A stretch of DNA of 42,455 nucleotides from a virus, in IMG/VR virus record IMGVR_UViG_3300029515_000012, positions 1-42,455 of that record, one strand, 5' to 3'. The position numbers and the translations under genes were made by a program. Numbering within the stretch: position 1 is the first letter of the stretch; each line of letters begins with the position of its first letter. Positions 3,215 to 35,432 of this stretch are shown here, one piece after another. Below the pieces are notes generated by a model. It was not told the DNA's origin. It ran no database searches and was given only the letters and a program-made list of their open reading frames with translations.

Positions 3215-3550
3215 ATGGCAGCAATTCTTAATTTCATCCCCGCCCCCGTCGCAATCGTTCTCATCATCGTCGGCTTTGTGGCTCTGGCAGTCGGCGCTAT
3301 CCGCATGGGCTATAAGCAGCTGGTCAAAGATCTGGCCTATGACCTCGTGTGCAAGGCCGAGGACAGCATCATGGGCAGCGGCCAGGGCGCAAAGAAAAAG
3401 AAGCAGGTCTTTGACGCGCTACGTGCGGCCTGCCCTGCATGGCTGAAGCCTATCATCACGGATGAAGTGCTTGACGCGGTGATTGAAAAGGCCGTAAGCC
3501 TGATGAAGAAGGCACTGGCAGATAATCATCCTGCTATCAACAAGGAGTAA
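3215..3550 (+). CDS. Holin, LL-H-like family
   Basis: Single N-terminal TM (IPAPVAIVLIIVGFVALAVGAI), GSGQGAKKKK and a C-terminal DAVIEKAV motif as in LL-H type holins. Adjacent to the lysin. Confidence 0.65.
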   Translation: MAAILNFIPAPVAIVLIIVGFVALAVGAIRMGYKQLVKDLAYDLVCKAEDSIMGSGQGAKKKKQVFDALRAACPAWLKPIITDEVLDAVIEKAVSLMKKALADNHPAINKE

Positions 3551-3553
3551 TTT

Positions 3554-5665
3554 ATGATCGAGCTAAGCGTATCTCTCGCATCCAATGGCGTCGTCAAAGT
3601 GCCGGGCTATGAGCAGCTGGTGCGCTTTGGCTACACCAAAAACTGGGGCGTGTACCGCCTTGCCGTCACCGCTTCCGGCGAGTGGGAGGGCCTGACCATC
3701 CGGGCTTTCTGGCACGTCCCGGACGGCAAAGACCCGGCATCCTCGCTGGTGGTGGACGGCTATGTGGCCGTGCCCGCCAGCGTGACCGCACAGCCCGGCA
3801 ATGGGTGCGTGACCTTCGAGGGAAGCGATGGCACCCGCACCGTGACAAGTGCAGATCTGCGCTACCGTGTGGCCGCCAACTCCGGCACGGAGGACGGCAG
3901 CATGCCGGAGCCTGGCACCCCTGCATGGCAGGAGCTGGTGGATGCCGTGCACACCGATGCCACCGCCGCAGAGCAGGCTAAGACCGACGCGCAGACTGCA
4001 GCACAGCAGGCAGGAGCAGCCGCACAAAAGGCCGCTGCCAGCGAGAAAGCCGCCGGTGACGCACAGAAAAAGGCCGCCGAGAGCTTGCAGGAGCTCAAGA
4101 ACGGCATTGCATCCGGAGACTTTAAGGGCGAGCCGGGCACATCGCCCACAGTCACCGTGCAGGATATCACTGGCGGCCATCGTATCGTCATCACCGACGC
4201 GACCGGGACCAGCTCTGTCGATGTGCTGAATGGCAAGCAAGGCGACCCAGGTAGACCGGGTGATACAGGCGCAACACCTGAGCTCACAATCGGTACGGTG
4301 GAAGAGGGCGACGCGCCATCTGCGACAATTACTGGCACGGCTAAAAATCCCGTGCTAAACTTTACACTTAAAAGCGGCGCACCCGGCAAAGACGCCACCG
4401 TAGATGCCACCCTGAGCCAGAGCGGGCAGGCAGCTGACGCTAAAGTGACCGGCGATGCGCTGGCAAGCAAAGCAGTCATCGACGACGCCACAGTCGGCAC
4501 CGACGCATGGAGCAGCAAGCACATCGTGGACATGCTCTGCCCGCCCATCTCTGAAACCGGGAATCCTGTTGTGTGTCACCCCGTGGCGGGGAGTAAACTT
4601 TGCTGTAAGGTGAGCTGGGAGCCGACGCAGGAGGGCAGCGGTGACCCAAGCCCGGATAACATCCGGCCTATTTCCGGGCGGGATGCGGTGAAAGTGGAAC
4701 GGTGCGGGGAGAATCTGCTGAATTTGCCTATTGAAAAAGAATCGGGTGGAATCAGTGTTACAACAGAACCTGATGGGCGCTATCACTTGAGAGGCACATT
4801 GAATATGGACGGATTTTCGTGTAGCATCGGCACCGTCCGCCTGCCAGCAGGTACATACACTGTAAACCGAGCTTCAATCAGTACTCCTTTGTCTACTAAT
4901 GCAATTGTAATTACACTCAGAAAAAATACACCTACCGGCAGTGTAGCTTGGATTGAAACAAGTATCGGTGTCGGCAAAAATACTGGCAGCTTAGCCAAGC
5001 CAACAAATATTTCAATTTCCTTTTATGGCGCAATCGCATCTATTAAAAAGGGCACGGTGATAGATACATATTTTGAGCTTATACTTGTTTCTGGCACCAC
5101 CGCCCCCACCACCTACGCCCCATACACCGGCCAAACCTCCACTCTGACCCTGCCCCGCACCATCTACGGCGGTACGGTGGATGCAGTGACGGGAGAGGGG
5201 CAGGAGGCGTGGAAGTTGTTGACGCTGGATGGAACGGAACCATGGAATGCCGTTGGATCAGGTGATACTCTTTATTTTCAGAGCACTTCGATTTCCATTG
5301 GAACAAGAGTGCTGTCCAGGGGCGATTATTGCACAACGTTCCCTATTGCATCGGTTTCAAGTTCGAATACGGTACAAGGAGTAAACGGGTGGAAAACATC
5401 CCTATATCTGCGTTGGTCTACATTTGCGAACGTTGCCGCTTTGAAATCCTACCTCGCCGCCCAGTACGCAGCCGGAACCCCTGTGCAAGTCTGCTACAAG
5501 CTCGCCACTCCCACCCCTTTCATCGCGACAGGCGCACAGCCTATCCCCGCCCTCCCCGGCGTGAACACACTGATGACCGACGCGGACAGCGTGACGGTGA
5601 CCGGCAGAGCGGACCCCATCAAGCGCATCACTGACCTTGAGGACGCAGTAGCGTCCATGACCTAA
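3554..5665 (+). CDS. Tail fibre / receptor-binding protein 2 with collagen-like segment
   Basis: 703 aa. Ala-rich coiled coil, Gly-X-Y run (GEPGTSP...GKQGDPGRPGDTGATP), and motif TLSQSGQAADAKVTGDAL shared with fibre 1. The C-terminal half is AT-richer. Confidence 0.7.
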   Translation: MIELSVSLASNGVVKVPGYEQLVRFGYTKNWGVYRLAVTASGEWEGLTIRAFWHVPDGKDPASSLVVDGYVAVPASVTAQPGNGCVTFEGSDGTRTVTSADLRYRVAANSGTEDGSMPEPGTPAWQELVDAVHTDATAAEQAKTDAQTAAQQAGAAAQKAAASEKAAGDAQKKAAESLQELKNGIASGDFKGEPGTSPTVTVQDITGGHRIVITDATGTSSVDVLNGKQGDPGRPGDTGATPELTIGTVEEGDAPSATITGTAKNPVLNFTLKSGAPGKDATVDATLSQSGQAADAKVTGDALASKAVIDDATVGTDAWSSKHIVDMLCPPISETGNPVVCHPVAGSKLCCKVSWEPTQEGSGDPSPDNIRPISGRDAVKVERCGENLLNLPIEKESGGISVTTEPDGRYHLRGTLNMDGFSCSIGTVRLPAGTYTVNRASISTPLSTNAIVITLRKNTPTGSVAWIETSIGVGKNTGSLAKPTNISISFYGAIASIKKGTVIDTYFELILVSGTTAPTTYAPYTGQTSTLTLPRTIYGGTVDAVTGEGQEAWKLLTLDGTEPWNAVGSGDTLYFQSTSISIGTRVLSRGDYCTTFPIASVSSSNTVQGVNGWKTSLYLRWSTFANVAALKSYLAAQYAAGTPVQVCYKLATPTPFIATGAQPIPALPGVNTLMTDADSVTVTGRADPIKRITDLEDAVASMT

Positions 5666-5676
5666 AGGAGGTACAT

Positions 5677-5913
5677 ATGGCAATTAAATCGAAAGCACGC
5701 CACGACCTGACCCTGCGCTCCATCAAGCGAGAAATCGCCGCCGGACGCGACGTGGCATACTGGCTGGACAAGGCTTACACCCATCTGGACAGCGGATTGC
5801 TGACGGAGGACGACATCGCAGAGGTGGAAGCTCTGGCAAAGGCGTACTATGACGCACTGGACGCGGAGGACAGCGCGATTGATGCGCCGGACGATATGAC
5901 GCAGGAGGAATGA
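5677..5913 (+). CDS. Hypothetical acidic protein (78 aa)
   Basis: ATG is preceded by AAAGGAGGT. Immediately follows fibre 2. Confidence 0.5.
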   Translation: MAIKSKARHDLTLRSIKREIAAGRDVAYWLDKAYTHLDSGLLTEDDIAEVEALAKAYYDALDAEDSAIDAPDDMTQEE

Positions 5914-5928
5914 CCATGAGCAGCACTA

Positions 5929-6140
5929 CATATCCTGAAAAGTGGCCCAAAACGGCCATTTTAACAAATGAGTTCAACTTTTTAGCTGTTAAAAGTCGAA
6001 CTCATTGCGATTTTGGTAACGTCAACAAAATCGTGAAACCTGACCATTTTGCCAACCCCGGCAAAATGTTCGCCGCACAAGAACAATTTCGTGACATCAC
6101 GAAAATGGTGACAAAACGTCACCATTTTGCCGTGCTTGGC
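5929..6140. repeat. Array of seven consecutive palindromes/hairpins, including two roughly 47-bp imperfect direct repeats
   Basis: Hairpins read directly: 5929-5952, 5957-5996 (16-bp arms, 1 mismatch), 5998-6023, 6035-6058 (CATTTTGCC-N6-GGCAAAATG), 6077-6094 (TTTCGTGA-ca-TCACGAAA), 6095-6115 (ATGGTGAC-N5-GTCACCAT), 6110-6139 (CACCATTTTGCC-N6-GGCAATATGGTG). Confidence 0.85.
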
Positions 6141-6252
6141 AATATGGTGCGCAACGCCGGACAGCTGCCGCAGCCTTTCTGGCTCGGTGCTGCCTGTGGC
6201 GGCGGCTCGTGTGGTGCTGCCCGCTGCGCTGCAAGGACTTGACCGGCAGCAG

Positions 6253-6420
6253 ATGACCACCGCGATCAAAAGCGCACCGCTTGGGAGGGTAGACCGTAAG
6301 ATAGCCTTACTGCGGTACGTTGAGCGGCTCCCGCTGCCGGACATTGCAGCACAAACACATTACAGCCGGACAGCGATAGGCTACCGGCTGAAAGGCATTG
6401 AAAAAATGCTGAATGTGTGA
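6253..6420 (+). CDS. Small sigma-70 region-4-like HTH protein (start uncertain, frame open from 6127)
   Basis: RKIALLRYVERLPLPDIAAQTHYSRTAIGYRLKGIEKML resembles a region 4.2 HTH. No convincing RBS. Confidence 0.4.
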   Translation: MTTAIKSAPLGRVDRKIALLRYVERLPLPDIAAQTHYSRTAIGYRLKGIEKMLNV

Positions 6421-6479
6421 TATACTGTTTATACCGTCCGAAGTAGAGTACACACACTTCGGAGAAATGTGTACAGAGA

Positions 6480-6517
6480 GCCAGCGGAAGAACGTTTACC
6501 CGCTGGCTTTTCTTTTT
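6480..6517 (+). terminator. Rho-independent terminator
   Basis: GCCAGCGG-N12-CCGCTGGC followed by TTTTCTTTTT. Confidence 0.8.
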
Positions 6518-6635
6518 GCACGAATTGTGGTATAATAATCTCAACAAATCTGCCCGGCCTCTCGAAGAAGCGCATTAGGGTGGATATCTGAACCCATCAA
6601 GCCTCTCAACGATGCGTATCATGGTGGGTCTTTAA

Positions 6636-6706
6636 GGCTATGTAGCTCAGTTGGTAGAGCAGGGCGCACCCCGTCTATTGCGCTGGTTCAATTCCAGCCA
6701 TAGCAA
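6636..6706 (+). ncRNA. tRNA-like element or tRNA pseudogene with a 5-nt loop in place of the anticodon loop
   Basis: Acceptor GGCTATG/CATAGCA (1:72 mismatch). Canonical D arm GCTC-AGTTGGTA-GAGC. Stem GGGCG/CGTCT (2 G-U) closing only CACCC. Canonical T arm GCTGG-TTCAATT-CCAGC. 71 nt, no CCA. Confidence 0.4.
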
Positions 6707-6835
6707 GTCCGAAAATGCTTGAACGGTTTTGAATAGTGCGCATACGTCAAAATTGCGATAGCAGAAGTAGGCATTTTTAGTTGATACAGTCTCCCACCCG
6801 CCTACTTACAGTGCGTACCATGCGGGAGACGCAGA

Positions 6836-6877
6836 AATCCCCCGGTGTTCCGTTTGGAGCATTGGGGGATTTTTTTA
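6836..6877. terminator. Terminator hairpin between convergent units
   Basis: AATCCCCC-N20-GGGGGATT followed by TTTTTT on the plus strand. It abuts the stop of the minus-strand gene 6875..7576. Confidence 0.7.
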
Positions 6878-7576
6878 CTTTTTCTTCAATTCCTCAAGCC
6901 TGCTGGAAAGCTCTTCTTCCCATCCTTCATGTTCTTTAAGGTATGGGGCGTAGATCAGTTCTTCGGCCTCTTTGCGGGCCGCAACGGCTTCCTCGACGGT
7001 GTCGTAGCTGCCGAGATGGTACTGCTTCCGCCGAAAATTGATATATGCACGCCATCGGCCATGGTGGTCTTTGCACACGCCATTTGCGCCAGAAGTGGAA
7101 TTTTTATTGATATGGCCTCCAACCCTTGTGCGAATCGACATAATGGAAGAGCCACCCGCGTAAGCTGTGCTGTGAATTGCCCCGGTTTTCTCTCCAATGT
7201 CCCTGTTGCAATCTGCGCAATGCTGGATCCGAGAAAGCCTTGTGATCTTTACGGTGGTTTCCTTCCCACATTTCGGGCAAATAGCACGGCACAGAAAGCA
7301 ACCTGACCTCTTTTCGGGCAAAACTTCCAATACTTTCCATCCGTTAATGACGTGTCCCTCTTTTTCCTTTGCCTTTTTCAGTCTTGCGCTTGTCAGGCCT
7401 GGCTTTTGCCCTCGATTCGCACAAGACAGACAGCTGCGGCTTTTGCCAAGACGCAGGGAGCTGTCATACACGTCTTTTACCACTCCGCACTCACACTGGC
7501 ATGTGTAGTAGTGCGGCTTTTCAGACGGCGCAAGTACCGTCCACTTTCCAAAATGCTTTCCAGTCAAATCTGCCAT
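6875..7576 (-). CDS. AP2-domain DNA-binding protein with two Cys4 zinc-ribbon-like modules
   Basis: C-terminal GVCKDHHGRWRAYINFRRKQYHLGSYDTVEEAVAARKEAE fits the AP2 pattern. N-terminal repeats: GKWTVL..CQCECG..CLSC and GWKVLE..CPKCG..CADC. Confidence 0.65.
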   Translation of the reverse strand: MADLTGKHFGKWTVLAPSEKPHYYTCQCECGVVKDVYDSSLRLGKSRSCLSCANRGQKPGLTSARLKKAKEKEGHVINGWKVLEVLPEKRSGCFLCRAICPKCGKETTVKITRLSRIQHCADCNRDIGEKTGAIHSTAYAGGSSIMSIRTRVGGHINKNSTSGANGVCKDHHGRWRAYINFRRKQYHLGSYDTVEEAVAARKEAEELIYAPYLKEHEGWEEELSSRLEELKKK

Positions 7577-11992: not shown

Positions 11993-11999
11993 AAAATAA

Positions 12000-12043
12000 A
12001 CGCACGAACGATAAAAACAAATCGTTCGTGCGTTTTTCTTTTT
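12000..12043. terminator. Strong terminator hairpin after the tRNA fragment
   Basis: ACGCACGAACGAT-N8-ATCGTTCGTGCGT followed by TTTTTCTTTTT. Confidence 0.85.
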
Positions 12044-12103: not shown

Positions 12104-13237
12104 TCAATACTTCATTTTTTGCATTTCCTGCAACAGATAAGCCGGGTCATTGTGGGACACGTACTTGTTGGCCGTGGTGGAGAAATTTTTGTGACCCAAG
12201 ATGGCCTGCACGGCGGTCTTTTCCAGGCCGCACTCCACCATCTTACTACTGGCCGTGTGGCGCAGCGTGTGTGGATGCACGCCCTCTATATGGCATTCCT
12301 GCATCAACGCTCGGAACTTTGTAGCCACGTTGCGCTTATCCAGCTTTGTGCCGGCCTTGGATGGAATCAGCCATTCGCATCCGCTGTCAAGCATCCAAAA
12401 GGCAATGATCTTGTAAATGGGCTCAAGGATGGGGATAATGCGGTTTTTGCCTGCCTCGGTCTTTTCGCCGCCCTGCATGTACCGCTCTTTCAGATGCACA
12501 TCCTCGCAGCGCATGGAAAGCAGCTCGTCAATGCGCATACCGGTGTACAGCAGCACCATGGCGATCTGTGCCGTTTGCCCAAGCCTTGGGTCATTCTGTC
12601 GGCTGCTGATCTGCTCGATCTCTTGGGCGGTCAGTGTGCGCTCTGCTTTTCCTGTAGCCGCCGGAAGCTGCAGCAGCATGGCATAATTTTTGTTTATGAT
12701 GTCCTGTGCCATTGCCCACTCGCAGATCTGGCTGAAAAGTGTGCGCTGCTTTTCGCAGGAGCTGCGGGAAAGCCCCTTTTCCACCATTGCGTCAATGACC
12801 TGTTGATAATCTGCCGCTTTCAAGTCCCGCAATTGTCGGTCGTATAGCGGCGCAGCCTTTGCATAGGCCAGCTCGTACCCCTTTTGCATGTCCGTGCTAA
12901 GCTTGTCAAATTTGGGCTGCGCTTTCCATTGGACATAGGCATCCGCAAAGGTGCACTTCAGAAGCGCAGCGGGGGTGTTCTGGGCGTTGTAAGCGTCCAG
13001 CGCTTGTACTGCTTCGCCTGCCGTTTCAAACGTGCCCAGAACATCCCTGCGGGCTGTGAGTGCAACATACGGTCTTGCCCGCGTCCCGCTCAGTTTATAC
13101 ACGCTGCCGCTGCCCTTTGGACGGCGTCGCTTTTTTCTTTGCTGCGGGGCGGCTTCCGGCTGTTTCTTCCCGCACCACGGACAAAAAGAAGCACCATCCG
13201 GGATCTCCTTCCGGCAACATGGCCTTACGCATTTCAT
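12104..13237 (-). CDS. int: Tyrosine integrase with N-terminal zinc ribbon
   Basis: GMRIDELL (Arg), HTLRHT (H-x-x-R), LGH and the Tyr in ANKYVSH. N-terminal CCRKEIPDGASFCPWCG. AAGGAG RBS. Confidence 0.9.
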   Translation of the reverse strand: MKCVRPCCRKEIPDGASFCPWCGKKQPEAAPQQRKKRRRPKGSGSVYKLSGTRARPYVALTARRDVLGTFETAGEAVQALDAYNAQNTPAALLKCTFADAYVQWKAQPKFDKLSTDMQKGYELAYAKAAPLYDRQLRDLKAADYQQVIDAMVEKGLSRSSCEKQRTLFSQICEWAMAQDIINKNYAMLLQLPAATGKAERTLTAQEIEQISSRQNDPRLGQTAQIAMVLLYTGMRIDELLSMRCEDVHLKERYMQGGEKTEAGKNRIIPILEPIYKIIAFWMLDSGCEWLIPSKAGTKLDKRNVATKFRALMQECHIEGVHPHTLRHTASSKMVECGLEKTAVQAILGHKNFSTTANKYVSHNDPAYLLQEMQKMKY

Positions 13238-13240
13238 AGC

Positions 13241-13828
13241 TTACTCCTTTTTTCGCCCGATGTAACTCTGCGCGCCTTTTTCCGAAGCTTCACGCCCGGC
13301 CTTGTAATTTACCTTCAAATCGTCTATGGGCGGCTGTGGGTCGTCCGGACAGGGGTCTAAGCCCATGTTCTGGGCAAAGTTGTATTGGTTGATGATAGTT
13401 CCGCACACGCTGACCCGGTTGTTGAGTGGGCAGTGCAGGTTGGCGGCTACCTCGGAGATCACAGCGGGCGGGCTGCTGCCATGGTTGCCCTTCAGCACGA
13501 AAAGAAGCAGTCGTTTCGTCAGCGGTGGCAAGTTTACCACAAAGCGGCACAGCTTTGCGTCCAGCTCTGTGTCGGTCTTTCCGTCATCGGGTGTCGCGTA
13601 CAGCTCCGGGTGGATCATCTCCATAAACACGGCGATGGGGGATGCCCCGCAGGCCGTACACCAATCCATGATCTCGTCGCTGTCCGGGCTGGTGCAGCCT
13701 TTTTCCCAGCTCTGCACTGTTCGCTCCCCTTTTTCGATGCGCCTTGCGATCTCCGCTTGACTCAGGCCAGCAGATACCCGTGCTTTTGCAAGCGCTTTTC
13801 CGATTTGGCTCGCCGTAAAATAACTCAT
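13241..13828 (-). CDS. XRE-family HTH regulator with a roughly 130-aa C-terminal domain, co-oriented and contiguous with int
   Basis: LSQAEIARRIEKGERTVQSWEKG HTH. Likely start is MSYFTASQ (GGGGG upstream) rather than the track start at 13924. Confidence 0.7.
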   Translation of the reverse strand: MSYFTASQIGKALAKARVSAGLSQAEIARRIEKGERTVQSWEKGCTSPDSDEIMDWCTACGASPIAVFMEMIHPELYATPDDGKTDTELDAKLCRFVVNLPPLTKRLLLFVLKGNHGSSPPAVISEVAANLHCPLNNRVSVCGTIINQYNFAQNMGLDPCPDDPQPPIDDLKVNYKAGREASEKGAQSYIGRKKE

Positions 13829-13866
13829 ACTTTCGCCCCCATAAAACCAACGTGTTTTTAACAGAA

Positions 13867-13893
13867 AATGGCGCAGATTTTTTCTGCGCCATT
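13867..13893. promoter_or_regulatory. Perfect 10-bp inverted repeat AATGGCGCAG-N7-CTGCGCCATT in the divergent region
   Basis: Read directly. A related half-site AACGGCGCA lies at about 13923. Confidence 0.5.
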
Positions 13894-13986
13894 CGACAAA
13901 AAATATCCGTATTTTGTTTTCCAACGGCGCATGGTAAAATCTGGATTATAAATCGTAGACGTGCACAAAAGAAAGGGGAAAACAAA

Positions 13987-14437: not shown

Positions 14438-15055
14438 TTACAGGCCCAAGCGCTTACGCTGTTCCTCTTGCGATTTTCTGAAATTATCGTTGTGTGCCTC
14501 AATTTCGGCTTCAATTTGAGCGGCAATGTCTTCCCAATGGCTTGTATCGCCACCTGCTATCCGGCGGTTGATCTCCCACACGTCCAAATGGCAACAGCCA
14601 CGGCCAAGTGGAGCAACGGCTGCCTTGCAGTCGGTTACATAAGCATTGTCTTTTAGCTCTTGTTTTCCAAGCTCTGTAAGCTCGTATTTTTGCTTATCGT
14701 TCATCCGAATAAAGCCGCTAGCTTCAAGCGTTTTCAAGTGAGATCCAACGTTTTTGATGCCATACTGGTACCACCAGAGCCCCGGATAACCGTGCTTTGG
14801 ATGCGGGTACAGCTTTCCGCTTGAGCAATAGCTCAAAAGCTTGATTTCCGCAACGTAAAGGCCACGCTTTGACGGGTAAGAAATCTTTTTCCGTTCCTGA
14901 AAAGTAATGACTTTGCATGTGCCGTTTACGGCATCAAAAGACATCGACGGCGCATAGTCTTTATAATAAGACGGATCTTGATAATACTGCCGCTCTTCTG
15001 GAGGGATAGGCGGTTCTACGTCCTGATTAAAGGCAAAAGCAGTGAATAAATCCAT
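14438..15055 (-). CDS. Hypothetical cytoplasmic protein (205 aa) with a possible winged-helix segment
   Basis: Spaced 3 nt after the upstream gene. LEASGFIRMNDKQKYELTELGKQEL resembles a wHTH wing. AT-richer than the flanks. Confidence 0.65.
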   Translation of the reverse strand: MDLFTAFAFNQDVEPPIPPEERQYYQDPSYYKDYAPSMSFDAVNGTCKVITFQERKKISYPSKRGLYVAEIKLLSYCSSGKLYPHPKHGYPGLWWYQYGIKNVGSHLKTLEASGFIRMNDKQKYELTELGKQELKDNAYVTDCKAAVAPLGRGCCHLDVWEINRRIAGGDTSHWEDIAAQIEAEIEAHNDNFRKSQEEQRKRLGL

Positions 15056-16007: not shown

Positions 16008-16115
16008 ATGCAGGACACTTCATTCAGCCCGGACGAAATCAGAAAAATCATCGAAAAGCTAAAGAGTGACCCTGCATTTCGTCAGAAAGTCCTCGTTATT
16101 CTTAATAAGGATTAG
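16008..16115 (+). CDS. Small ORF (35 aa) with a strong RBS, convergently overlapping the CI-like gene stop
   Basis: TAAGGAGGA lies 8 nt before the ATG. MQDTSFSPDEIRKIIEKLKSDPAFRQKVLVILNKD. Confidence 0.35.
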   Translation: MQDTSFSPDEIRKIIEKLKSDPAFRQKVLVILNKD

Positions 16116-16447
16116 AGAAGTTCTCGGATAGCGTTCTTTTTCGCTTCCGAAGCTCCAAGAATCCGTCTTACAAGCTCAGCGTCTTCAGGAGACAGGCTGG
16201 ACAAGTCCACGCCCTCCGGGGTGCTGGGCTTTTCTTTTTGTTCTTCGCCCATAAGCTCTTCAATAGAAATTCGTAGAAAATCAGACACAAGCAGTAGCTT
16301 ATCTTTCGGCGGATAGCGCTTTCCATTAGCCCATTTTCCTACTGTTCCGTTGGCAAATTTCAAATCTTTCTCCATTTTTGTAATGGAGCTTCCTTGATTT
16401 TTGCACGATACACGGATGAATTCTACCAGCTCAGGCAAAGAACGCAT
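16112..16447 (-). CDS. CI-like XRE-family repressor
   Basis: HTH SSITKMEKDLKFANGTVGKWANG. ATG 16447 lies 6 nt after GGAGGAG. Divergent from the Cro-like gene. Confidence 0.8.
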   Translation of the reverse strand: MRSLPELVEFIRVSCKNQGSSITKMEKDLKFANGTVGKWANGKRYPPKDKLLLVSDFLRISIEELMGEEQKEKPSTPEGVDLSSLSPEDAELVRRILGASEAKKNAIRELL

Positions 16448-16461
16448 AAAAAACTCCTCCA

Positions 16462-16506
16462 ATAGCCTAATTTTCTATTGACAACTAGAAAATTAGGCTA
16501 TATAAT
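16462..16506 (+). promoter_or_regulatory. Early rightward promoter TTGACA-17-TATAAT embedded in a perfect 16-bp inverted-repeat operator
   Basis: ATAGCCTAATTTTCTA-ttgacaac-TAGAAAATTAGGCTAT. -35 at 16478-16483 and -10 at 16501-16506. Confidence 0.8.
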
Positions 16507-17065: not shown

Positions 17066-17267
17066 GCCCGAACCGTGGACTGGCCGTCTGATTGGCCGGA
17101 TGCACAACAACCAGATTACAGTAGACGACGTAGCAAAGCATCTTGGATTTTCGAGAAGCTACTGTTCACTGATTTTGAACAGCAAGCGCAACCCTCCCGG
17201 CATTCGGGAAAAGATGGAAACTGCCGTCAGCGAGATCATCAAGGAAAAGGAGGACAAAACGGCATGA
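17058..17267 (+). CDS. Small HTH DNA-binding protein
   Basis: ITVDDVAKHLGFSRSYCSLILN HTH-like segment. Confidence 0.5.
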   Translation: MIKPEPWTGRLIGRMHNNQITVDDVAKHLGFSRSYCSLILNSKRNPPGIREKMETAVSEIIKEKEDKTA

Positions 17268-18076
17268 GTGAATTAAACAATCTCATCCCCATTAGCTACG
17301 ACAACCCGGAGCGCCCAACGGTGAGCGGCCGGGAGCTGCACGACTTCTTAGAAGTCACGACCCGGTACAACGATTGGTTTAACCGTATGACCGAGTATGG
17401 TTTCACTGAGGGCGAGGACTATTACTCATTTTTGAGTAATAGGTCTGACGGTCTGGCAGGCAAACCCCGCACCGACCACCAGCTCACCATCCCGATGGCG
17501 AAGGAGCTGTGCATGATCCAGCGCAACGAGCGTGGCAAGCAGGCCCGGCAATATTTCTTGGCCGTGGAGGCGCAGTGGAACAGCCCGGAAGCGGTCATGC
17601 GCCGTGCGGTGCTTATTGCAGACCGCAAAGTGAAAGAGCTGCAAAGCGTGAACCGCAGCCTGCTGGCCGAGAACAACGACCTGAAGCCGGATGCGGAGTA
17701 TGCCCGGGCGGTGTGCGTGGGCAAGAACTGCCGCACCACTACCAGCCTTGCCAAGGATTACGGCCTGAGCGCCGAGAAACTCAACAGCATCCTCCACGGA
17801 CTGAAGATCCAGTACAAGACCAGCGACGGCCAGTGGGTGCTATACGCCAAGTATTGCGGCAAGGGCTACACCAAAAACCGCAAATCCACGCCGTTCCAGC
17901 ACAAGAGCACCGGCGAGTGGGACACCAAGAACACCACCGTATGGACGGAAGCCGGACAGCGGTTTATCTATGAGCAGCTCAAGGCCGTGGGAATGCTGCC
18001 CAGCGTGGAGCGCAGGCAGAGCGTGGAGCAGATGGAGCTTGCCGCCCGGCAGCGCGACCAGGACGGCGTGGCGTAA
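17264..18076 (+). CDS. Antirepressor (AntA/ORF6N-type N-domain plus KilA-C-type C-domain)
   Basis: RPTVSGRELHDFLEVTTRYNDWFNRMTEYGFTEGEDY and the C-terminal TTSLAKDYGLSAEKLNSILH pattern. ATGA overlap start at 17264. Confidence 0.75.
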   Translation: MSELNNLIPISYDNPERPTVSGRELHDFLEVTTRYNDWFNRMTEYGFTEGEDYYSFLSNRSDGLAGKPRTDHQLTIPMAKELCMIQRNERGKQARQYFLAVEAQWNSPEAVMRRAVLIADRKVKELQSVNRSLLAENNDLKPDAEYARAVCVGKNCRTTTSLAKDYGLSAEKLNSILHGLKIQYKTSDGQWVLYAKYCGKGYTKNRKSTPFQHKSTGEWDTKNTTVWTEAGQRFIYEQLKAVGMLPSVERRQSVEQMELAARQRDQDGVA

Positions 18077-21061: not shown

Positions 21062-21142
21062 TACCAGCACGGACAGACCACAAGGTGACGGGGTTCCAGA
21101 CCTCCATCACCACAAAGATATCACAAACAGGAGGTTTTTACA

Positions 21143-21337
21143 ATGCATGACGTGGCATTTTACTATTGCTACGGACACCGCAAAGAGCACTGCAGCATTG
21201 ACGTGCAATGCTTCGAGGGCGAGCCGGTCAAGGCCAGCGTGGACGCCCAGCACTGGGCAGATGAGCAGATCCAGACCGGCGAATACAGCCAGATCGACGT
21301 CAAGGACGCCCTGGGCAACCTGATCTATTCGAGGTGA
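21143..21337 (+). CDS. Hypothetical protein (64 aa)
   Basis: ACAGGAGG RBS. Confidence 0.5.
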   Translation: MHDVAFYYCYGHRKEHCSIDVQCFEGEPVKASVDAQHWADEQIQTGEYSQIDVKDALGNLIYSR

Positions 21338-21343
21338 ATATTT

Positions 21344-21988
21344 ATGCAGAAAGAACGCATGAAGCGTATGACCAAGAGGGAGCGCGTCAAAGACCTTTCC
21401 AACAAGGCCGAGGGTATTTACTACTATGTCGGCCCGCAGCACATGACGTTCCGGCTCATCAATGCCGGAAATGACCTCGCAAGCGAGATCAACCACGCAG
21501 TGTCCTTTTTCACGACGTTCGCCGAAAAAGGGCACATGGACGATACTTTCAGCCGAGCCGTGATTGACAACATTTACAGGATGGTCGGAAGGATGATGTG
21601 CGATATTGACATCATCCACGCAGCGGGCGGCGCGGAGGTCATGCCTGAACCGTACGAAAGCATTGATTTTTGTTACGGGAATGAGTACCGTACCCTGCTG
21701 CATGAGGCAGTCATCAATGGCTTGCCAGACAACTACAAGGGGCCTCAGCAGAATCCGAATGTGATAAACCTTGTAAAGCCGTCTGTGTCCTTTAAAGACC
21801 CCATGGAAAAGTTCGACTTTGACCCTGACGAATACAATGACGGCGAATTTATGAGCTTTACCGAGCACGAAGAGCCGCGCGACCGCAAAATTGTGTTTCA
21901 CTGCACAAAGTCGGATCTGGATGCGATCAAGCGCTTTGCAAATATCATTCAAATCAAATTCACAGAGGAGGAAATCCACCATGCCTGA
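21344..21988 (+). CDS. Hypothetical protein (214 aa) immediately upstream of RecT
   Basis: 8-nt overlap with RecT. No nuclease motif recognised by eye. Confidence 0.6.
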   Translation: MQKERMKRMTKRERVKDLSNKAEGIYYYVGPQHMTFRLINAGNDLASEINHAVSFFTTFAEKGHMDDTFSRAVIDNIYRMVGRMMCDIDIIHAAGGAEVMPEPYESIDFCYGNEYRTLLHEAVINGLPDNYKGPQQNPNVINLVKPSVSFKDPMEKFDFDPDEYNDGEFMSFTEHEEPRDRKIVFHCTKSDLDAIKRFANIIQIKFTEEEIHHA

Positions 21989-22631
21989 TACCGCTGCCAA
22001 ACTAATCACTGTCGAACAGCAACAGCCTGCGCAGGTGCATGAAAATGCTATCCCCCAGGCAATTTCAGAAGAAACCACCATTCAGAATTCCAACGCGAGC
22101 GCCGCAATCAGCAGTTGGAAGCTTGCTTGCAGCATGGGGAAAGCCTACGCTCAGCTTCCGGACGGCATGGTTCCGCAGAGCTATAAAGGCAACGTTGCTG
22201 CCTGTGCCGTTGCCTGCAATATGGCAGCCAGAATGGGCATGGACCCGGCCTTCGTCATGCAGAATCTGTATGTCGTGCGGGGTAATCCGTCCTGGAGCGG
22301 CAAGAGCTGCAAAGCCCTGATTGATAATTCCGGACAGTTTGCCGGTCGCACCCGCTACCGCATGGAGGGCGAGGAAGGCAAGGACAACTGGGGATGCCGC
22401 CTGATCGGTGTGGACAAGGTCACCGGTGAGAAAATCGAGGGGCCGAAGGTCACGGTTAAAATGGCAAAGGACTCCGGGTGGTGGGACAAGCCCAACAGCT
22501 TCTGGCCCAAGATGACCGAGATGATGCTCAAGTATCGCGCAGCCGCTTATTTTGCCCGCGCGGAGTGCCCGGAGGTCCTCATGGGTGCAAATGTTGACTG
22601 TGAATCTTACGAAGCCCCGATGGAGGATTGA
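21981..22631 (+). CDS. recT: RecT-family single-strand annealing protein
   Basis: MAARMGMDPAFVMQNLYVVRGNPSWSGKSCKALI and KYRAAAYFARAECPEVLMG are typical RecT blocks. Followed by SSB. Confidence 0.75.
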   Translation: MPDTAAKLITVEQQQPAQVHENAIPQAISEETTIQNSNASAAISSWKLACSMGKAYAQLPDGMVPQSYKGNVAACAVACNMAARMGMDPAFVMQNLYVVRGNPSWSGKSCKALIDNSGQFAGRTRYRMEGEEGKDNWGCRLIGVDKVTGEKIEGPKVTVKMAKDSGWWDKPNSFWPKMTEMMLKYRAAAYFARAECPEVLMGANVDCESYEAPMED

Positions 22632-22634
22632 TGC

Positions 22635-23108
22635 ATGCTTAACGTTGTAGCCATCATGGGCCGCCTTGTGGCGGACCCGGAACTCAAGACCACCACGCAG
22701 GGCACCAGCGTGTGCCGTTTCCGCATTGCCTGCGACCGAAGCTATGTCCGTCAGGGCGAGGAACGCAAGGCCGATTTTATTGACATTGCCGCATGGCGGC
22801 AGACTGCCGAGTTCGTCTGTAAGTATTTCCAGAAGGGCAGCCTGATCGTCATCGACGGCAGCATCCAGACCCGCCAGTATCAGGACAAGAACGGCAACAA
22901 CCGCACCGCTTTCGAGGTCGTGGCCAACAATGTGAGCTTTGCGGGCGCAAAGGCGGCGGGGAAGTCCGCTGCACGGAGTTTTGAGCAGCAGACGCAAAGT
23001 TATGCACAGCAGGCAAACGCCTCTCACAGCGCACCGCAGGCCGGTTACGCGCAGGGCGAGCCGGACGACTTTGACGAGATCACCGACGACGGCGACCTGC
23101 CGTTCTGA
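22635..23108 (+). CDS. ssb: Single-stranded DNA-binding protein
   Basis: MLNVVAIMGRLVADPELK OB-fold N-terminus, Gln/Ala linker, and acidic tip DDGDLPF. Confidence 0.92.
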   Translation: MLNVVAIMGRLVADPELKTTTQGTSVCRFRIACDRSYVRQGEERKADFIDIAAWRQTAEFVCKYFQKGSLIVIDGSIQTRQYQDKNGNNRTAFEVVANNVSFAGAKAAGKSAARSFEQQTQSYAQQANASHSAPQAGYAQGEPDDFDEITDDGDLPF

Positions 23109-23166
23109 TAACTGGCAAAGCGCTGTGCTATCTGGCGTTACGGGCGTGCAAGGAAGGAGGTGGAGC

Positions 23167-23976
23167 ATGGAAGAGGAAGTAAGGCCAAAGGCTTTGATGA
23201 TCCCGTTTGACAAGTTCGTCATTCTGGATATCCTCCCGCCGGAACAGTACAAAAACGTGGTCACCCAGATGCGGCAGTATGTGGAGCTGAATCGGGAGCC
23301 GGAAGAGCTGCAACCCATCGAGCGCATGGCATTTGAAGCACTACGCCCGTTCATGAACGAAAATATTAAAACGTATAAACGCAAAATTGACGCGCAGCAC
23401 ACGAACGGCAGCAAAGGCGGCAGACCGAAAAAGCCAAAAGAACCCAACGAAACCCATGGGTTTTCTGAGAAACCCAACGAAACCCATGGGTTTTCTGAGA
23501 AACCCAACGAAACCCATGGGGCACCAAAGTACAAAGTACAAAGTACAAAGTACAAATCTAATACTGACGTATTAGAGAGAGATGGAGACGCTGACGCGTC
23601 TACTACCCCCTCCCCAGCAAAATCGAACCGTTTCCATCCGCCGGATGCTGTGGAGGTCAAGGCGTACTTTACCGAAAAAGGCGGCACGACAGAGCAGGCC
23701 CAGAGGTTCCTGGATTTTTACGAATCCAACGGGTGGAAGGTGGGTAAGAACCCCATGAAGAGCTGGAAGGCAGCTGCATCCTGCTGGATCTCGCGGGACA
23801 AGGAGCGGCAAAAAGCCCCTGCGTTCCAGCGCAACCCGGTTCGGTACGTTTCCCGCCCGCCGGAGGAAGCCGAGAAGGCCGTGGATTTCATGAGGGACGC
23901 ACCGGACCGCACCATGAAGTGGCTCGAGAAGCGAAAAAAGGAGGAAGAGAATGCCCCGATACAAGGTGATCCTTGA
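23167..23976 (+). CDS. Replication-associated protein (replisome-organizer / DnaD-like C-terminal domain) containing internal DNA repeats
   Basis: GGAGGTGG RBS before ATG 23167. C-terminal FLDFYESNGWKVGKNPMKSWKAAASCWISRD motif. Repeats at 23441-23552. Confidence 0.55.
   Translation: MEEEVRPKALMIPFDKFVILDILPPEQYKNVVTQMRQYVELNREPEELQPIERMAFEALRPFMNENIKTYKRKIDAQHTNGSKGGRPKKPKEPNETHGFSEKPNETHGFSEKPNETHGAPKYKVQSTKYKSNTDVLERDGDADASTTPSPAKSNRFHPPDAVEVKAYFTEKGGTTEQAQRFLDFYESNGWKVGKNPMKSWKAAASCWISRDKERQKAPAFQRNPVRYVSRPPEEAEKAVDFMRDAPDRTMKWLEKRKKEEENAPIQGDP
23441..23521 (+). repeat. 30-bp tandem repeat x2.7, each unit carrying the 14-bp perfect palindrome AAACCCATGGGTTT
   Basis: aacccaacgaaacccatgggttttctgaga at 23441 and 23471, with a partial copy at 23501. 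Encodes the peptide PNETHGFSEK repeated. Confidence 0.9.
23525..23552 (+). repeat. 7-bp tandem repeat CAAAGTA x4
   Basis: Read directly. Lies in-gene, giving the 21-bp periodic peptide KYKVQST. Confidence 0.9.
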
Positions 23977-26404: not shown

Positions 26405-26556
26405 TCGGGGAAATTTGGATTCAAGCAAACATGACCGAAGATGGAACTGTTCATCTTCTGGTTGCGCCGGGTATCGCCGATAAAATCAAGAACGTTGTCG
26501 TTTACGAAATCGGTAGTCTAGCCGTAAAATGCACGTTTGAGGAGGAAAGCCAATGA
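26401..26556 (+). CDS. Hypothetical protein (51 aa)
   Basis: ATGA overlaps on both sides. Confidence 0.4.
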   Translation: MIGEIWIQANMTEDGTVHLLVAPGIADKIKNVVVYEIGSLAVKCTFEEESQ

Positions 26557-27008
26557 TCCGCACACGGACACCTGAAAGTGATGCACCAAAGCCGGACAGA
26601 ACCGATTACTGCACCGTTAAGGCGTGGCTGAACCGCTACCGCGAAGCAGAGAAAAGATACTACTTGCTGTCTGACCGGCTGGCCGAAGCACAGGAGGCCA
26701 CTCGGCACATTACCCAGAGCCTCAGCGCGGCCCCCGGCGGCAGCAAAGATGGCCAGAGCCTTGCCCGGGCGGTGGAACGTGAGGAGGAAGCGGAGCGCCG
26801 CGCTTATGAGCAAAGAGCGGTCTGCGACAGGCTGTTCCTCGAGATCAGAAACGCGCTCGCCCGGATCCAGAACGAAAAAGCATACACGGTGCTGTACAAG
26901 TACTATCTCGATTGCCTCACGTGGGACAGGGTCGCAAAAGATATGAATTACTCTTTGCGCATGGTCTATGTCTTGCGGCGCAAAGCAATGGAGGAGCTGA
27001 GCCTTTAA
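26553..27008 (+). CDS. Sigma-70 region-4-like late gene regulator (RinA/DUF1492-type position upstream of terminase)
   Basis: C-terminal YTVLYKYYLDCLTWDRVAKDMNYSLRMVYVLRRKAMEEL is a region-4 HTH pattern. Last early gene before the tRNAs and TerS. Confidence 0.65.
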   Translation: MIRTRTPESDAPKPDRTDYCTVKAWLNRYREAEKRYYLLSDRLAEAQEATRHITQSLSAAPGGSKDGQSLARAVEREEEAERRAYEQRAVCDRLFLEIRNALARIQNEKAYTVLYKYYLDCLTWDRVAKDMNYSLRMVYVLRRKAMEELSL

Positions 27009-27492: not shown

Positions 27493-27568
27493 ACTCCCGT
27501 AGCTCAATTGGTAGAGCGCTGGTCTCCAAAACCAGAGGATGCAGGCTCGGTCCCTGTCGGGAATGCCA
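27493..27568 (+). tRNA. tRNA-Trp (anticodon CCA), CCA-encoded
   Basis: 76 nt. D arm GCTC-AATTGGTA-GAGC. Anticodon arm CTGGT-CTCCAAA-ACCAG. T arm GCAGG-CTCGGTC-CCTGT (unusual T loop). Discriminator G then CCA. One C-A mismatch in the acceptor stem. Confidence 0.75.
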
Positions 27569-27748: not shown

Positions 27749-28225
27749 GTGGTGTCGGTGGGTGCGAAGCGGCTGACAGACAGGCAGAAAAAGAAGATCA
27801 TTGCTGACTATGTGATGCTGCAGAACTATGTGCAGACCGCCAAGCTGAACGATGTCGCAGAGAGTACCGTGCGGAAGATCGTAAAGGAAAATCCGGACTG
27901 TGCGAGACTGTGCGATGAAAAAAGAGAGGGCAACGCCCGGGATATGCTTTCTTATCTGGAAAGCAAACGGAACGAGGCCCAAGAGCTCCTCGGAATGTAC
28001 CTGAAAGCGATGGCGGACCCGGACAAGATAGCAGAGGCGACGTTGCCGCAGCTGTCCACAGCGTTTGGCACCATCGTGGACAAGTTTGCCGTGCTAGACG
28101 GCCAGAGCGATACGGAGACCCCAGACGATGGCCTGCTTGAGGCTCTGAGCGCTGCCGCAGACATAAGCCCCCCGGATGACGTGAGTATGCTGCCAGAGGA
28201 AGAGGACGACCATGCGGAAAAGTAA
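27749..28225 (+). CDS. terS: Terminase small subunit
   Basis: N-terminal HTH (LTDRQKKKIIADYVMLQNYVQTAKLNDVAESTVRKIV). Directly precedes TerL and overlaps it by 14 nt. GTG 27749 lies 9 nt after AGGAG. The track start at 27731 lies in the terminator T-run. Confidence 0.75.
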   Translation: MVSVGAKRLTDRQKKKIIADYVMLQNYVQTAKLNDVAESTVRKIVKENPDCARLCDEKREGNARDMLSYLESKRNEAQELLGMYLKAMADPDKIAEATLPQLSTAFGTIVDKFAVLDGQSDTETPDDGLLEALSAAADISPPDDVSMLPEEEDDHAEK

Positions 28226-33769: not shown

Positions 33770-33843
33770 GCCGTTTTCGCTCAATGGCAGAGCTGCTGAT
33801 TTGTAACCAGCGGACGCGGGTTCGATTCCTGCAAGCGGCACCA
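33770..33843 (+). tRNA. tRNA-Thr (anticodon UGU), CCA-encoded
   Basis: 74 nt. Acceptor GCCGTTT/AAGCGGC. D arm GCTC-AATGGCA-GAGC. Anticodon arm GCTGA-TTTGTAA-CCAGC (one A-C). T arm GCGGG-TTCGATT-CCTGC. Discriminator A then CCA. Confidence 0.85.
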
Positions 33844-34532: not shown

Positions 34533-35432
34533 ATGGCAGCAAAAGAAGGTATCACCATGACCACCGATATCACCGTAGCCGCGCGTGAAATCGACTTTGT
34601 GACCCGCTTCCAGCGCAACTGGGACCATCTGCGCACCATTCTGGGCATCATGCGCCCCATCCGGATGCAGCCTGGCACCGTGCTCAAGAGCAAGTATGCA
34701 CAGGGCACCCTGCAGAGCGGCACCGTGGGCGAGGGCGAAGAGATCCCGTTCAGCAAGTACACCGTCAAGGAGAAGGAGTACGGCAAGATCACCATCGACA
34801 AGTACGGCAAGTCTGTCACCCTTGAGGCAATCCAGAATTACGGCTACGATGTCGCCGTGCAGAAGACCGATGATGAGTTCCTGTACGACCTGACCGCTCT
34901 GGTAACGGATAAGTTCTACAAGTTCCTGAACACCGGCACCCTGAAGGGCACTCCCAAGACCTTCCAGATGGCGCTGGCACATGCCAAGGGCGCGGTCGAG
35001 AACAAGTTCAAGACCATGCATCGCACCGTGACCGGCGTTGTTGGCTTTGTCAACGTGATGGACGTGTACGACTATCTGGGCAATGCCAATATCACCGTGC
35101 AGAACCAGTTCGGCTTCCAGTACATCAAGGACTTCATGGGTTACAACACCATCTTCCTGCTGTCCGACAGTGAGATCGCGAAGGGAAAGGTTATTGCCAC
35201 CCCGGTAGACAACATCGTCATGTACTATGTGGATCCTGCGGATAGCGAGTTTGCCCGCGCAGGTCTGGTCTACAGGACCGCAGGCGAGGCAAGCAACCTC
35301 ATCGGCTTCCACACTCAGGCAAACTACAGCACCGCAACCTCCGAGAGCTACGCCATTATGGGCGTGACCCTGTTTGCTGAGTATCTGGACGGTATCGCTG
35401 TCGAGACCATTACCCCGGGTGAATCGGTCTAA
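34533..35432 (+). CDS. Major capsid protein
   Basis: 299 aa after the scaffold. GAAAGGAATAAC RBS region. Size and position are typical. Confidence 0.85.
   Translation: MAAKEGITMTTDITVAAREIDFVTRFQRNWDHLRTILGIMRPIRMQPGTVLKSKYAQGTLQSGTVGEGEEIPFSKYTVKEKEYGKITIDKYGKSVTLEAIQNYGYDVAVQKTDDEFLYDLTALVTDKFYKFLNTGTLKGTPKTFQMALAHAKGAVENKFKTMHRTVTGVVGFVNVMDVYDYLGNANITVQNQFGFQYIKDFMGYNTIFLLSDSEIAKGKVIATPVDNIVMYYVDPADSEFARAGLVYRTAGEASNLIGFHTQANYSTATSESYAIMGVTLFAEYLDGIAVETITPGESV

Follow-up and report, generated by a model that had tools for sequence, protein, structure and literature searches.

What kind of element is a run of seven inverted repeats that is open to translation on both strands and leads directly into a small helix-turn-helix (HTH) frame? 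The question is raised by the viral record IMGVR_UViG_3300029515_000012 from IMG/VR, which was analysed over its positions 1 to 42,455; this whole stretch of 42,455 nucleotides (nt) is called the window, and a unit is a single palindrome or stem-loop of the array at 5939-6149. The reading that we favour, with a probability of about one half, is that the array is a set of tandem, codon-phased DNA palindromes in the translated leader of a two-frame HTH gene and that their symmetry is kept up as DNA. The units form a palindrome family with arms of about 12 nt, loops of 0-8 nt and a spacing of 33-39 nt, and they read H/Q/D-F-x4-K-M/I in the encoded protein.

Direct reading and a repeat finder place seven stem-loops, S1 to S7, between 5939 and 6149, with arms of 9-16 nt and loops of 2-8 nt:

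5939-5962, no strand: S1, AAAGTGGCC-caaaac-GGCCATTTT
5967-6006, no strand: S2, AATGAGTTCAACTTTT-N8-AAAAGTCGAACTCATT, with 16-nt arms and 15 of 16 pairs
6008-6033, no strand: S3, CGATTTTGGT-aacgtc-AACAAAATCG, reading C-DFGNVNKI
6042-6071, no strand: S4, GACCATTTTGCC-aacccc-GGCAAAATGTTC, reading DHFANPGKMF
6084-6107, no strand: S5, CAATTTCGTGA-ca-TCACGAAAATG, reading QFRDITKM, the second commonest unit among relatives
6102-6128, no strand: S6, AAAATGGTGAC-aaaac-GTCACCATTTT, with the middle base of a codon at its centre and arms common with S5 and S7
6120-6149, no strand: S7, CACCATTTTGCC-gtgctt-GGCAATATGGTG, reading HHFAVLGNMV

An earlier, sequence-only reading of the window had described a dense cluster of seven palindromes at 5929-6140. 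The cluster is borne out, although it ends at 6149. When the whole 42-kb window was scanned, 6 of its 16 hairpins with at least 9 Watson-Crick pairs fell within the 183 nt at 5967-6149, a density never reached by composition-matched shuffles, which gave a maximum of 2 such hairpins per 250 nt. The same window-wide hairpin scan found no similar palindrome elsewhere, so that there is one cluster only. Because they share arms, S5, S6 and S7 are mutually exclusive; the earlier reading had recognised the exclusivity but had assigned it to two overlapping repeats instead of three. Its two imperfect direct repeats of about 47 bp also exist, at a shorter length of 33 nt (6036-6068 and 6114-6146, 76% identity, the best direct repeat), and the motif ACCATTTTGCC-N6-GGCAA that it saw in two copies does occur twice, in the form ACCATTTTGCC-N6-GGCAAWATG, with 0 occurrences expected. 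The centres of S4, S5 and S7 are spaced 39 nt, or 13 codons, apart. The RNA fold of 5916-6190 is predicted at -105.7 kcal/mol (z = -8.4), and G+C is 35-48% across the array, about 57-62% in the preceding gene (5700-5949) and 58-71% over 6100-6349.

Comparison with relatives indicates which of the open frames is a gene. The relatives comprise four human-faecal phage records and, in IMG/VR, more than 538 loci with an HTH of the window type and 218 with a second subtype; a protein search gave 685 clusters, and gene callers have annotated the cassette in the databases in several inconsistent forms. The frames and signals over the array are the following, with the plus-strand open reading frame (ORF) called ORF-A:

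5903-5909, plus strand: Shine-Dalgarno (SD) sequence AGGAGGA of ORF-A, 6 nt before ATG 5916, read directly
5916-6242, plus strand: ORF-A, 108 amino acids, frame 0, with an MSSTTY start, a palindrome-built hypervariable middle, a conserved MVRNAGQLPQPFWLG segment and then a tail
6144-6185, plus strand: frame-0 segment encoding MVRNAGQLPQPFWL, conserved as protein
5982-6344, minus strand: antisense ORF, not a gene, open through palindromy only, with no family match

In 163 gut-phage loci ORF-A starts with M-[AS]-S-T-T-Y behind a strong ribosome-binding site (RBS) and is in frame to an anchor, GGTGCTGCCTGTGGCGGCGGCTCG; relatives have AAGGAGGATATC-ATG or AAGGAGATTATT-ATG at the start position. These loci represent 118 distinct nucleotide variants of 114-273 nt in 18 length classes, and ORF-A is open and in frame in all 118, every length being a multiple of three. 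Over the same region frames +1 and +2 are open in 19 and 3 of the 118 variants, respectively. The ends of ORF-A are conserved, while its middle is hypervariable, modular and replaceable by unrelated non-repeat sequence. The last 14 codons of the constrained part vary at third positions, and per-site variability, tabulated over 127 unique sequences, lies at frame-0 third positions throughout 6144-6179 (by codon position, for example, 2, 2 and 47 for CCT and 0, 2 and 24 for TTC). The last 18 codons of ORF-A are an unconstrained tail that overlaps the HTH frame. Since the frame is kept over insertion and deletion variants, the RBS and start are conserved and the variation falls on third positions, ORF-A is under selection for translation, and the comparison shows it to be a translated gene leader and not an artefact of palindromy. 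It has no match in Pfam (even with E up to 10), PHROGs or NCBIfam, and the ORF-A part of the protein is modelled by AlphaFold with a predicted local distance difference test (pLDDT) score below 50. The antisense frame in register with ORF-A is open in 89 of the 118 variants and the other antisense frames in 34 and 0; such openness is expected from palindromy and accounts for the minus-strand ORF 5982-6344. The suggestion that palindromy accounts for the ORFs on both strands is thus right for the minus strand only, the plus-strand ORF being a real one of translated type.

The HTH frame is +1 relative to ORF-A, with an identical offset, in 163 of 163 loci, and the frame-0 stop always lies 54 nt past the anchor (163/163). 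Up to 6179, in the segment encoding MVRNAGQLPQPFW, the variation is at frame-0 third positions; from 6192 onwards it is at frame +1 third positions, encoding VLPVAAARVV.... The features around this change are:

6180-6192, plus strand: near-invariant 13-mer TGGCTCGGTGCTG, at which the constraint on coding changes over from frame 0 to frame +1; proposed as the site of +1 recoding or of a coupled start at GTG 6187
6198-6209, plus strand: near-invariant GGCGGCGGCTCG, directly after the frame switch, without synonymous variation
6187-6420, plus strand: sigma-region-4/KorA-like four-helix HTH, 77 amino acids (VLPVAAARVV...KMLNV), recognised by frame +1 constraint and by profile and fold matches

In frame +1, the stretch that separates the upstream stop from GTG 6187 is free of start codons in 44 of 135 unique loci, and only 1 of the 135 has an SD-like 4-mer ahead of a candidate start. 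Natural in-frame fusions of ORF-A and the HTH are present in the protein database. The DNA of three of them was recovered; they differ by +TC, -T and -4 nt, all changes fall inside the 13-mer at 6180-6192, and two of the three were seen in 2-4 independent samples. In fusion alleles P0013 and P0012 part of the array region is read in another frame. As the end of the frame-0 constraint, the beginning of the frame +1 constraint and the fusion indels coincide, the HTH would normally be made as a trans-frame extension. The cassette is a two-frame gene whose HTH is probably produced by +1 recoding of ORF-A; a start at the RBS-less GTG 6187, coupled to ORF-A translation, is a less likely alternative. 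It could be speculated that the codons CUC (6183) and CUG (6190), which are 7 nt apart, serve a short hop.

ATG 6253 is ruled out as the HTH start, because the second (L002-type) subgroup has ATA there and the constraint on frame +1 already begins at 6192. The array does lie just upstream of a small sigma-r4-like HTH frame, as had been noted, but the HTH follows it directly and is not a separate gene from 6253. Four natural deletion alleles (P0086, P0113, P0017 and P0077) fuse other frames to the HTH: in two of them the N-terminal 150-190 residues of a 703-amino-acid protein (3554-5665) are joined at AAIK, and in the other two ORF-A is joined directly at RVDRK or IKSAPLG. These alleles suggest that the linker VLPVAAARVV...QQM is dispensable in some phages.

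The HTH itself weakly matches Pfam Sigma70_r4_2 with E = 0.0024 (17.9 bits, below the 25.7 cut-off) and TIGR02937 at positions 108-161 with E = 0.0012, also below the curated cut-off. In the AlphaFold model of the fusion allele P0009, residues 1-65 have pLDDT below 50, whereas residues 68-135 form four helices at about 90. A Foldseek search with this model matched region 4 of SigD, an extracytoplasmic function (ECF) sigma factor, with a TM-score (TM) of 0.73 and a root-mean-square deviation (rmsd) of 1.9 Å, KorA of RK2 with TM 0.65, and also a YlxM-like protein; the KorA and sigma region 4 fold matches have rmsd 1.9-3.3 Å over 55-60 residues. No sigma region 2 was recognised, the N-terminal part being variable, predicted to be disordered and without a family match, which argues that the product is not a sigma factor. 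From these models it is predicted to be a small DNA-binding protein. A sequence search of the PDB with the HTH gave a chance match only, and no similarity was found to the sigma-like late activator encoded in the same window (26553-27008). Two subgroups of the HTH are represented by query sequences that share 45 of 77 residues, and the palindrome module repertoire is common to both.

What is maintained in the palindromes can be read from their variants. Module 1 occurs as CATTTTGTTGAC/GTCAACAAAATG (HFVDVNKM), CATCTCGGTGAC/GTCACCGAGATG (HLGDVTEM), CATATCGGTGAC/GTCACCGATATG (HIGDVTDM), CATCCCGGTGAC/GTCACCGGGATG (HPGDVTGM) and CATTTTGCC-N6-GGCAAAATG (HFANPGKM). The pairing is kept while the residues swap as F-K, L-E, I-D or P-G, the stem triplets alternating among TTT/AAA, CTC/GAG, ATC/GAT and CCC/GGG. 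Among 40 variants of module 1, 92.5% of cells are paired as opposed to 84.1% after shuffling (0 of 500 shuffles reach the observed value), and 49 cells are double changes as opposed to 19.6; in a control in which the partners were slid by 1-3 columns, at most 56% were paired. For 87% of hairpins the centre coincides with either a codon boundary or the middle base of a codon, with the result that one arm is read in codons that are the reverse complement of those in the other. Together these patterns indicate that the symmetry is a feature at the level of the nucleic acid and not a by-product of a repeat protein. Conservation as DNA with compensatory changes had been named beforehand as a check on the array and was found, with encoded residues that change non-conservatively; this is the opposite of a repeat protein that is conserved while synonymous changes erode the palindromes.

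Additionally, three observations separate DNA from RNA. Unique ORF-A hairpins hold 23 G.T and 29 A.C mismatches; 18 of 118 unique hairpins are loop-less, one of them a 32-nt perfect palindrome (locus L005); and loops occur in reverse-complemented form on three stems (aaaac/gtttt, aaa/ttt and aacggc/gccgtt), S6 itself having the flipped loop gtttt in relatives. Balanced mismatches, loop-less palindromes and flipped loops fit arm-to-arm correction or small inversions at the DNA level and do not fit selection for RNA stability, which points to symmetry maintained as DNA rather than as RNA. In 17 of the 118 variants no hairpin with at least 8 Watson-Crick pairs is present, and the frame and the HTH are kept there; the array is therefore not an essential cis site. 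Rfam scans with gathering and E-value thresholds found nothing in 5916-6190 except a chance match to a microRNA model (E = 0.27). The features of a CRISPR array or of type III toxin-antitoxin RNA repeats were likewise not found, as the best direct repeat has 76% identity over 33 nt and the units differ.

The same palindrome is found outside the cassette. Its archetype core, the 22-mer ATTTTGTTRAYRTYAACAAAAT, is present in at least 120 IMG/VR contigs among the matches listed, and within that set it has the HTH as a neighbour in 14 of 120 contigs, lacks it nearby in 106 of 120, and occurs in at least 50 independent flank contexts on contigs of 28-59% G+C. Many dispersed copies are intergenic: they follow endolysin or holin genes or precede an RBS or a terminator, and single units lie just after stop codons. 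In locus L004 an S2-type unit lies just after the portal gene and a relative of S3 reads DFVNVNKI at the portal C-terminus, which is DDFVNVNKIGTN followed by the stop; the head protein of locus L282 carries HHFVDVNKMV, and a tblastn search for homologues of that head protein, made as a check for a clean insertion of this motif, gave no match. In all coding contexts (DinD, portal, head protein and ORF-A) the unit is always in one reading, HFVDVNKM. No protein family that could be cognate to the dispersed palindromes occurs near them in more than 7 of 50 contexts, and the one that reaches this number is the integrases. Smaller arrays of three to five related palindromes occur without the HTH in other phages, L195, L243 and L214 among them. 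The L195 array (3340-3470) lacks a start codon, comes after a holin-like gene and extends to a terminator, and the arrays of L214 and L243 adjoin a Bro-N pseudogene fragment with internal stops.

In DinD-like proteins DHFVDVNKMV is the conserved motif of the family, and four Bro-N fragments end exactly at the palindrome. Among 127 DinD representatives at no more than 50% identity, positions x3 and x6 of D-H-F-x3-x-x-x6-K-M-V are compatible with reverse-complement codons in 89 of 127, as against 28.2 +/- 4.4 in shuffles (0 of 5000 reach 89). The compatible pairs are of 26 types, including V-N, A-G/S/R, R-T/A/P/S, G-T, P-R/G and E-L; the outer mirrored pairs are also enriched, and the central pair and the non-mirror controls are not. 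A DNA sample of 93 unique genes was chosen by the downstream motif YACYL..NGDP alone, blind to the palindrome motif. In it the best hairpin is on a codon boundary in 81 of 93 genes and at the same distance from the anchor motif in 64 of 93, and at least 10 of 12 pairs are formed in 57 of 93, whereas shuffles never give more than 9. The stems range from GATCATTTTCCC/GGGAAAATGATC to ACCTTGCTTCCT/GGGAAGCAAGGT, and A.C mismatches number 42 and G.T mismatches 37. The chromosomal dinD of E. coli (NZ_CP141787, L488 468-497) has GACCATTTCGAG-gagatc-CTCGATATGGTC, encoding DHFEEILDMV, in which 11 of 12 arm positions pair; the DinD loci L372-L461 likewise have the conserved coding palindrome of 30 bp at DHFxDVxKMV, and the family is present in 2077 of 5426 complete E. 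coli genomes. A literature search found no description of the palindrome sequence, nor of DinD or Bro-N with a palindrome, hairpin or cruciform, and the DinD coding palindrome appears to be undescribed. ORF-A has neither a Bro-N nor a DinD domain, the palindromic motif alone being in common.

In the mechanism that we propose, ribosomes translating ORF-A would reach the invariant UGGCUCGGUGCUG at 6180-6192, where a fraction would move to frame +1; either by this shift or from the RBS-less GTG 6187, the sigma-region-4/KorA-like HTH protein would be made. The palindrome region would encode a disordered spacer with no sequence constraint, in which only the reading frame must survive. From the sequence patterns, the symmetry would most simply be kept by arm-to-arm correction, that is, by intrastrand template switching on hairpin-prone DNA, and recombination between similar arms would change the number of units and so give rise to the hypervariability. 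The local effect of the cluster would probably be to tune how many ribosomes get to the frame switch.

Several points weigh against this reading. Template switching is deduced from sequence patterns, the shuffle controls do not model the relatedness of the variants, and the counts of G.T and A.C mismatches are not phylogenetically independent. At the proposed recoding site, inspection of 6170-6200 showed no slippery codon that could re-pair in +1, no stop and no internal SD sequence. The palindrome also persists across a DinD family with less than 50% identity, including the wholly different stem ACCTTGCTTCCT/GGGAAGCAAGGT, which looks more like selection for function than mutational upkeep. 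Furthermore, among the matches listed, phages that range over 28-59% G+C carry the archetype 22-mer in identical form, which hints at sequence-specific recognition by some factor. The DinD persistence and the identity of the core leave real room for a function; the units may bind a protein, act as a cruciform signal or serve as a joint for in-frame recombination. It is possible, if doubtful, that the coding palindromes are an unrecognised class of functional DNA element (an in-frame, orientation-independent recombination joint or a cruciform-type site) that is conserved in DinD from E. coli to gut phages, has been copied elsewhere and is amplified here, alongside a new and widespread +1 recoding signal.

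That the palindromes are binding sites for a protein is unlikely. They would be an operator, roadblock or decoy array for the adjacent HTH, or for a structure-specific or Bro-N/DinD-type protein, and would regulate the cassette or titrate that protein. The HTH fold resembles both KorA, a dimeric repressor that acts on a palindrome, and a -35-binding sigma domain; the archetype holds two inverted TTGAC motifs, the half-sites have a loose common consensus (CATTTYGKTGAC), the identical 22-mer is spread over its at least 50 contexts at 28-59% G+C, and equal numbers of G.T and A.C mismatches would also fit symmetric recognition of double-stranded DNA. However, stems differ inside one array (GTT/AAC, GCC/GGC, CGT/ACG and GGT/ACC), the GTGAC arms have a gap of 0, 2 or 5 bp, and the 17 of 118 variants without strong hairpins have an HTH that is 95-99% identical. 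Both HTH subgroups carry one module repertoire although only 45 of 77 residues are common, no such palindrome occurs elsewhere in the window, 106 of 120 other occurrences have no such HTH nearby, and no protein family is common to the contexts. None of the parS, Rex, CodY, PrfA, LexA and FNR boxes is known to fit the archetype in half-site spacing. That the array is an essential cis site, whether an in-gene iteron origin as in lambda O, a centromere for partition or a site of packaging, is disfavoured to the point of being hardly tenable. The array is an A+T-rich island of clustered dyads in frame within the gene of a DNA-binding protein, but it is hypervariable, its units are not identical iterons and are irregularly spaced, and strong hairpins are absent in 17 of 118 variants. 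It lies at the end of the late/lysis operon beside lysis genes and 22 kb from the terminase genes; the phage encodes an integrase and a CI-like repressor, and the window ORFs that were scanned include no ParA/ParB. The operator, centromere or origin that the sequence-only reading had listed as candidate roles is not upheld by these differences in unit sequence and spacing, by the variants without a strong hairpin, by a window with no ParA/ParB among the ORFs scanned, or by the position of the array, which is not in a recognisable replication gene.

At the level of the transcript, the units could form hairpins in the messenger RNA (mRNA) of a translated leader, with a role in delaying ribosomes, in determining how often the frame changes, or in protecting or processing the late transcript at its 3' end. 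The fold is predicted to be highly stable (z = -8.4), S5, S6 and S7, which exclude one another, form an attenuator-like chain, and the array is in a translated region directly upstream of the recoding site; the central codon pair is unconstrained, as a loop would be, and the single units of other phages lie just after stop codons or before an RBS. Against this, G.U is not above A.C (23 and 29 in ORF-A, 37 and 42 in DinD), loop-less perfect palindromes and loop flips are unexpected under selection for RNA structure, no Rfam family is matched, the last hairpin stops about 35 nt short of the switch site, and strong hairpins are absent in 17 of 118 variants. We regard RNA hairpins as quite improbable, and the multi-hairpin regulatory RNA suggested earlier is not supported, given the lack of an Rfam match and G.U pairs that are tolerated no better than A.C. 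Very improbable is a functional repeat protein in which the H-F-x4-K-M repeats of ORF-A act as peptide, for example in metal or partner binding, and the DNA symmetry is secondary. ORF-A is always in frame and translated, the HFVDVNKM reading recurs in every coding context (DinD, portal, head protein and ORF-A), and His, Cys and Met are frequent in the repeats. But mirrored residues change non-conservatively and only as reverse-complement codons (F-K, L-E, I-D and P-G), the middle can be replaced by unrelated non-repeat sequence, the region is predicted to be disordered, and the fusion alleles P0013 and P0012 read part of it in another frame.

Codon-phased palindromes in a two-frame leader have partial counterparts among known systems. 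The closest is the DHFxDVxKMV junction motif of DinD, which has 12-nt arms, a 6-nt loop, the same codon phase and the same H-F-x4-K-M reading, and which shares the compensatory variants V-N, A-G, R-T, G-T and P-R/G; in DinD it is a single copy between Bro-N and the C-terminal domain, whereas the array has seven tandem units. The lambda O gene contains the iterons of the lambdoid origin within the gene of the initiator. There too, dyad-symmetric units lie in frame in the gene of a DNA-binding protein and the DNA dictates the local amino acids, but the array units vary in sequence and spacing, are dispensable in some relatives and are at the end of a late operon and not in a replication gene. 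REP and BIME elements are short dispersed bacterial palindromes with many extragenic copies and an associated RAYT transposase. They resemble the units in being imperfect palindromes of 20-40 nt that are sometimes clustered, occur in many unrelated contexts and often lie just after stops; the array units differ in being codon-phased and translated, with one cluster in the window and no RAYT-type transposase or shared neighbour found.

Quasipalindromes are hotspots of template switching in E. coli reporters, and hairpin-loop inversions are known from non-coding chloroplast DNA. Like these, the array shows signs of arm-to-arm correction: some of its palindromes are perfect, substitutions come in pairs with no wobble intermediate, and loops are flipped. 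The known cases are mutational curiosities of single sites, whereas the units are conserved as a family throughout a protein family and have been amplified in tandem. Programmed +1 frameshifting is known in prfB and in the structural genes of Listeria phage PSA, and translational bypassing in gene 60 of T4. The cassette is similar in its overlapping 0 and +1 ORFs, the lack of downstream start signals, an invariant switch and a conserved nascent peptide just upstream of it; it differs in that the site offers neither a stop codon nor an SD-like stimulator, and no slippery codon that could re-pair. The HTH shares a four-helix fold with KorA (RK2) and with region 4 of sigma-70 and ECF factors (TM 0.65-0.73), but the cassette product has no sigma region 2, its sequence matches are below curated cut-offs, and its N-terminal tail is disordered and variable. 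Under the reading favoured here DNA symmetry can write protein sequence, the DHFxDVxKMV motif of DinD being dictated by the palindrome and its residues not chosen for the protein. The cassette is probably also a new case of recoding, one that occurs in more than 700 gut-phage loci (538 + 218 in IMG/VR), and the 118 array variants in one phage lineage are a natural system in which palindrome maintenance, amplification and recombination breakpoints in mosaic phage genomes can be followed. ORFs on both strands over palindromes should be neither dismissed nor accepted without comparative frame analysis.

The window is that of a temperate siphophage, with the following genes and signals:

71-2123: tail genes
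2302-2958: endolysin
3215-3550: holin
6437-6521, plus strand: two terminator-type hairpins closing the cassette, the second then followed by TTTTCTTTTT (z = -3.7)
12104-13237, minus strand: integrase
13241-13924, minus strand: CI-like repressor
17075-18076: anti-repressor
26553-27008: sigma-like late activator
28212-29459: terminase large subunit
29456-30844: portal
34533-35432: major head protein
37941-40964: 1007-amino-acid ORF upstream of the distal tail protein (Dit) gene, by position probably the tape measure
40964-41704: Dit

The order from the lysis genes onwards is the 703-amino-acid ORF, a 78-amino-acid ORF, the array and the two terminator hairpins, which puts the array right at the end of the late operon, with 22 kb between it and the terminase genes. 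A promoter and terminator scan of 5500-7000 found no promoter before the array, so that the cassette is probably co-transcribed with the late genes. No ParA/ParB or ParM/ParR-type genes were found among the window ORFs scanned. The terminase region matches distant Firmicute phages only. The sole match in species-representative genomes (CAVLAO010000101.1, L171) is a contig of 4.6 kb assigned to the bin of Bacteroides sp. CAG:927, probably by mistake, as a phage with 58% G+C and Firmicute-type genes fits poorly with Bacteroides.

Downstream of the cassette, 6636-6706 (plus strand) matches the Rfam tRNA model over its full length with 44.5 bits; with 5 nt in the anticodon loop where 7 are usual, and no call by ARAGORN, the element is probably tRNA-like or a tRNA in decay. 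Shortly before it, 6593-6629 matches the abiF RNA motif with 25.7 bits, below the gathering score of 37. A free-standing AP2-domain HNH-type endonuclease gene (6875-7576, minus strand) is convergent on the cassette; close homologues of it lie about 1 kb from the palindrome in 4 of 50 flank-context groups, with no link to the array shown. In the early region, an inverted repeat at 16462-16501 with 18-nt arms, 17 of 18 paired (ATAGCCTAATTTTCTATT-gaca-ACTAGAAAATTAGGCTAT), abuts the start of a repressor-like HTH gene (16112-16462, minus strand) and is probably an immunity-region operator. A hairpin at 11996-12037, with 17-nt arms, an A/T-rich loop and a T-run, lies just past the integrase stop and can be read as a putative terminator and/or neighbour of attP. 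Midway through the early region, at 21107-23687, long ORFs occupy both strands and are matched by neither Pfam nor PHROG families, and Pfam searches of the other unannotated window ORFs gave nothing beyond a marginal match of 14438-15055 to HTH_12 (21.0 bits, cut-off 21.4). Two tRNA genes are present, tRNA-Trp(cca) at 27493-27568 before the terminase genes and tRNA-Thr(tgt) at 33770-33843 inside the head gene block.

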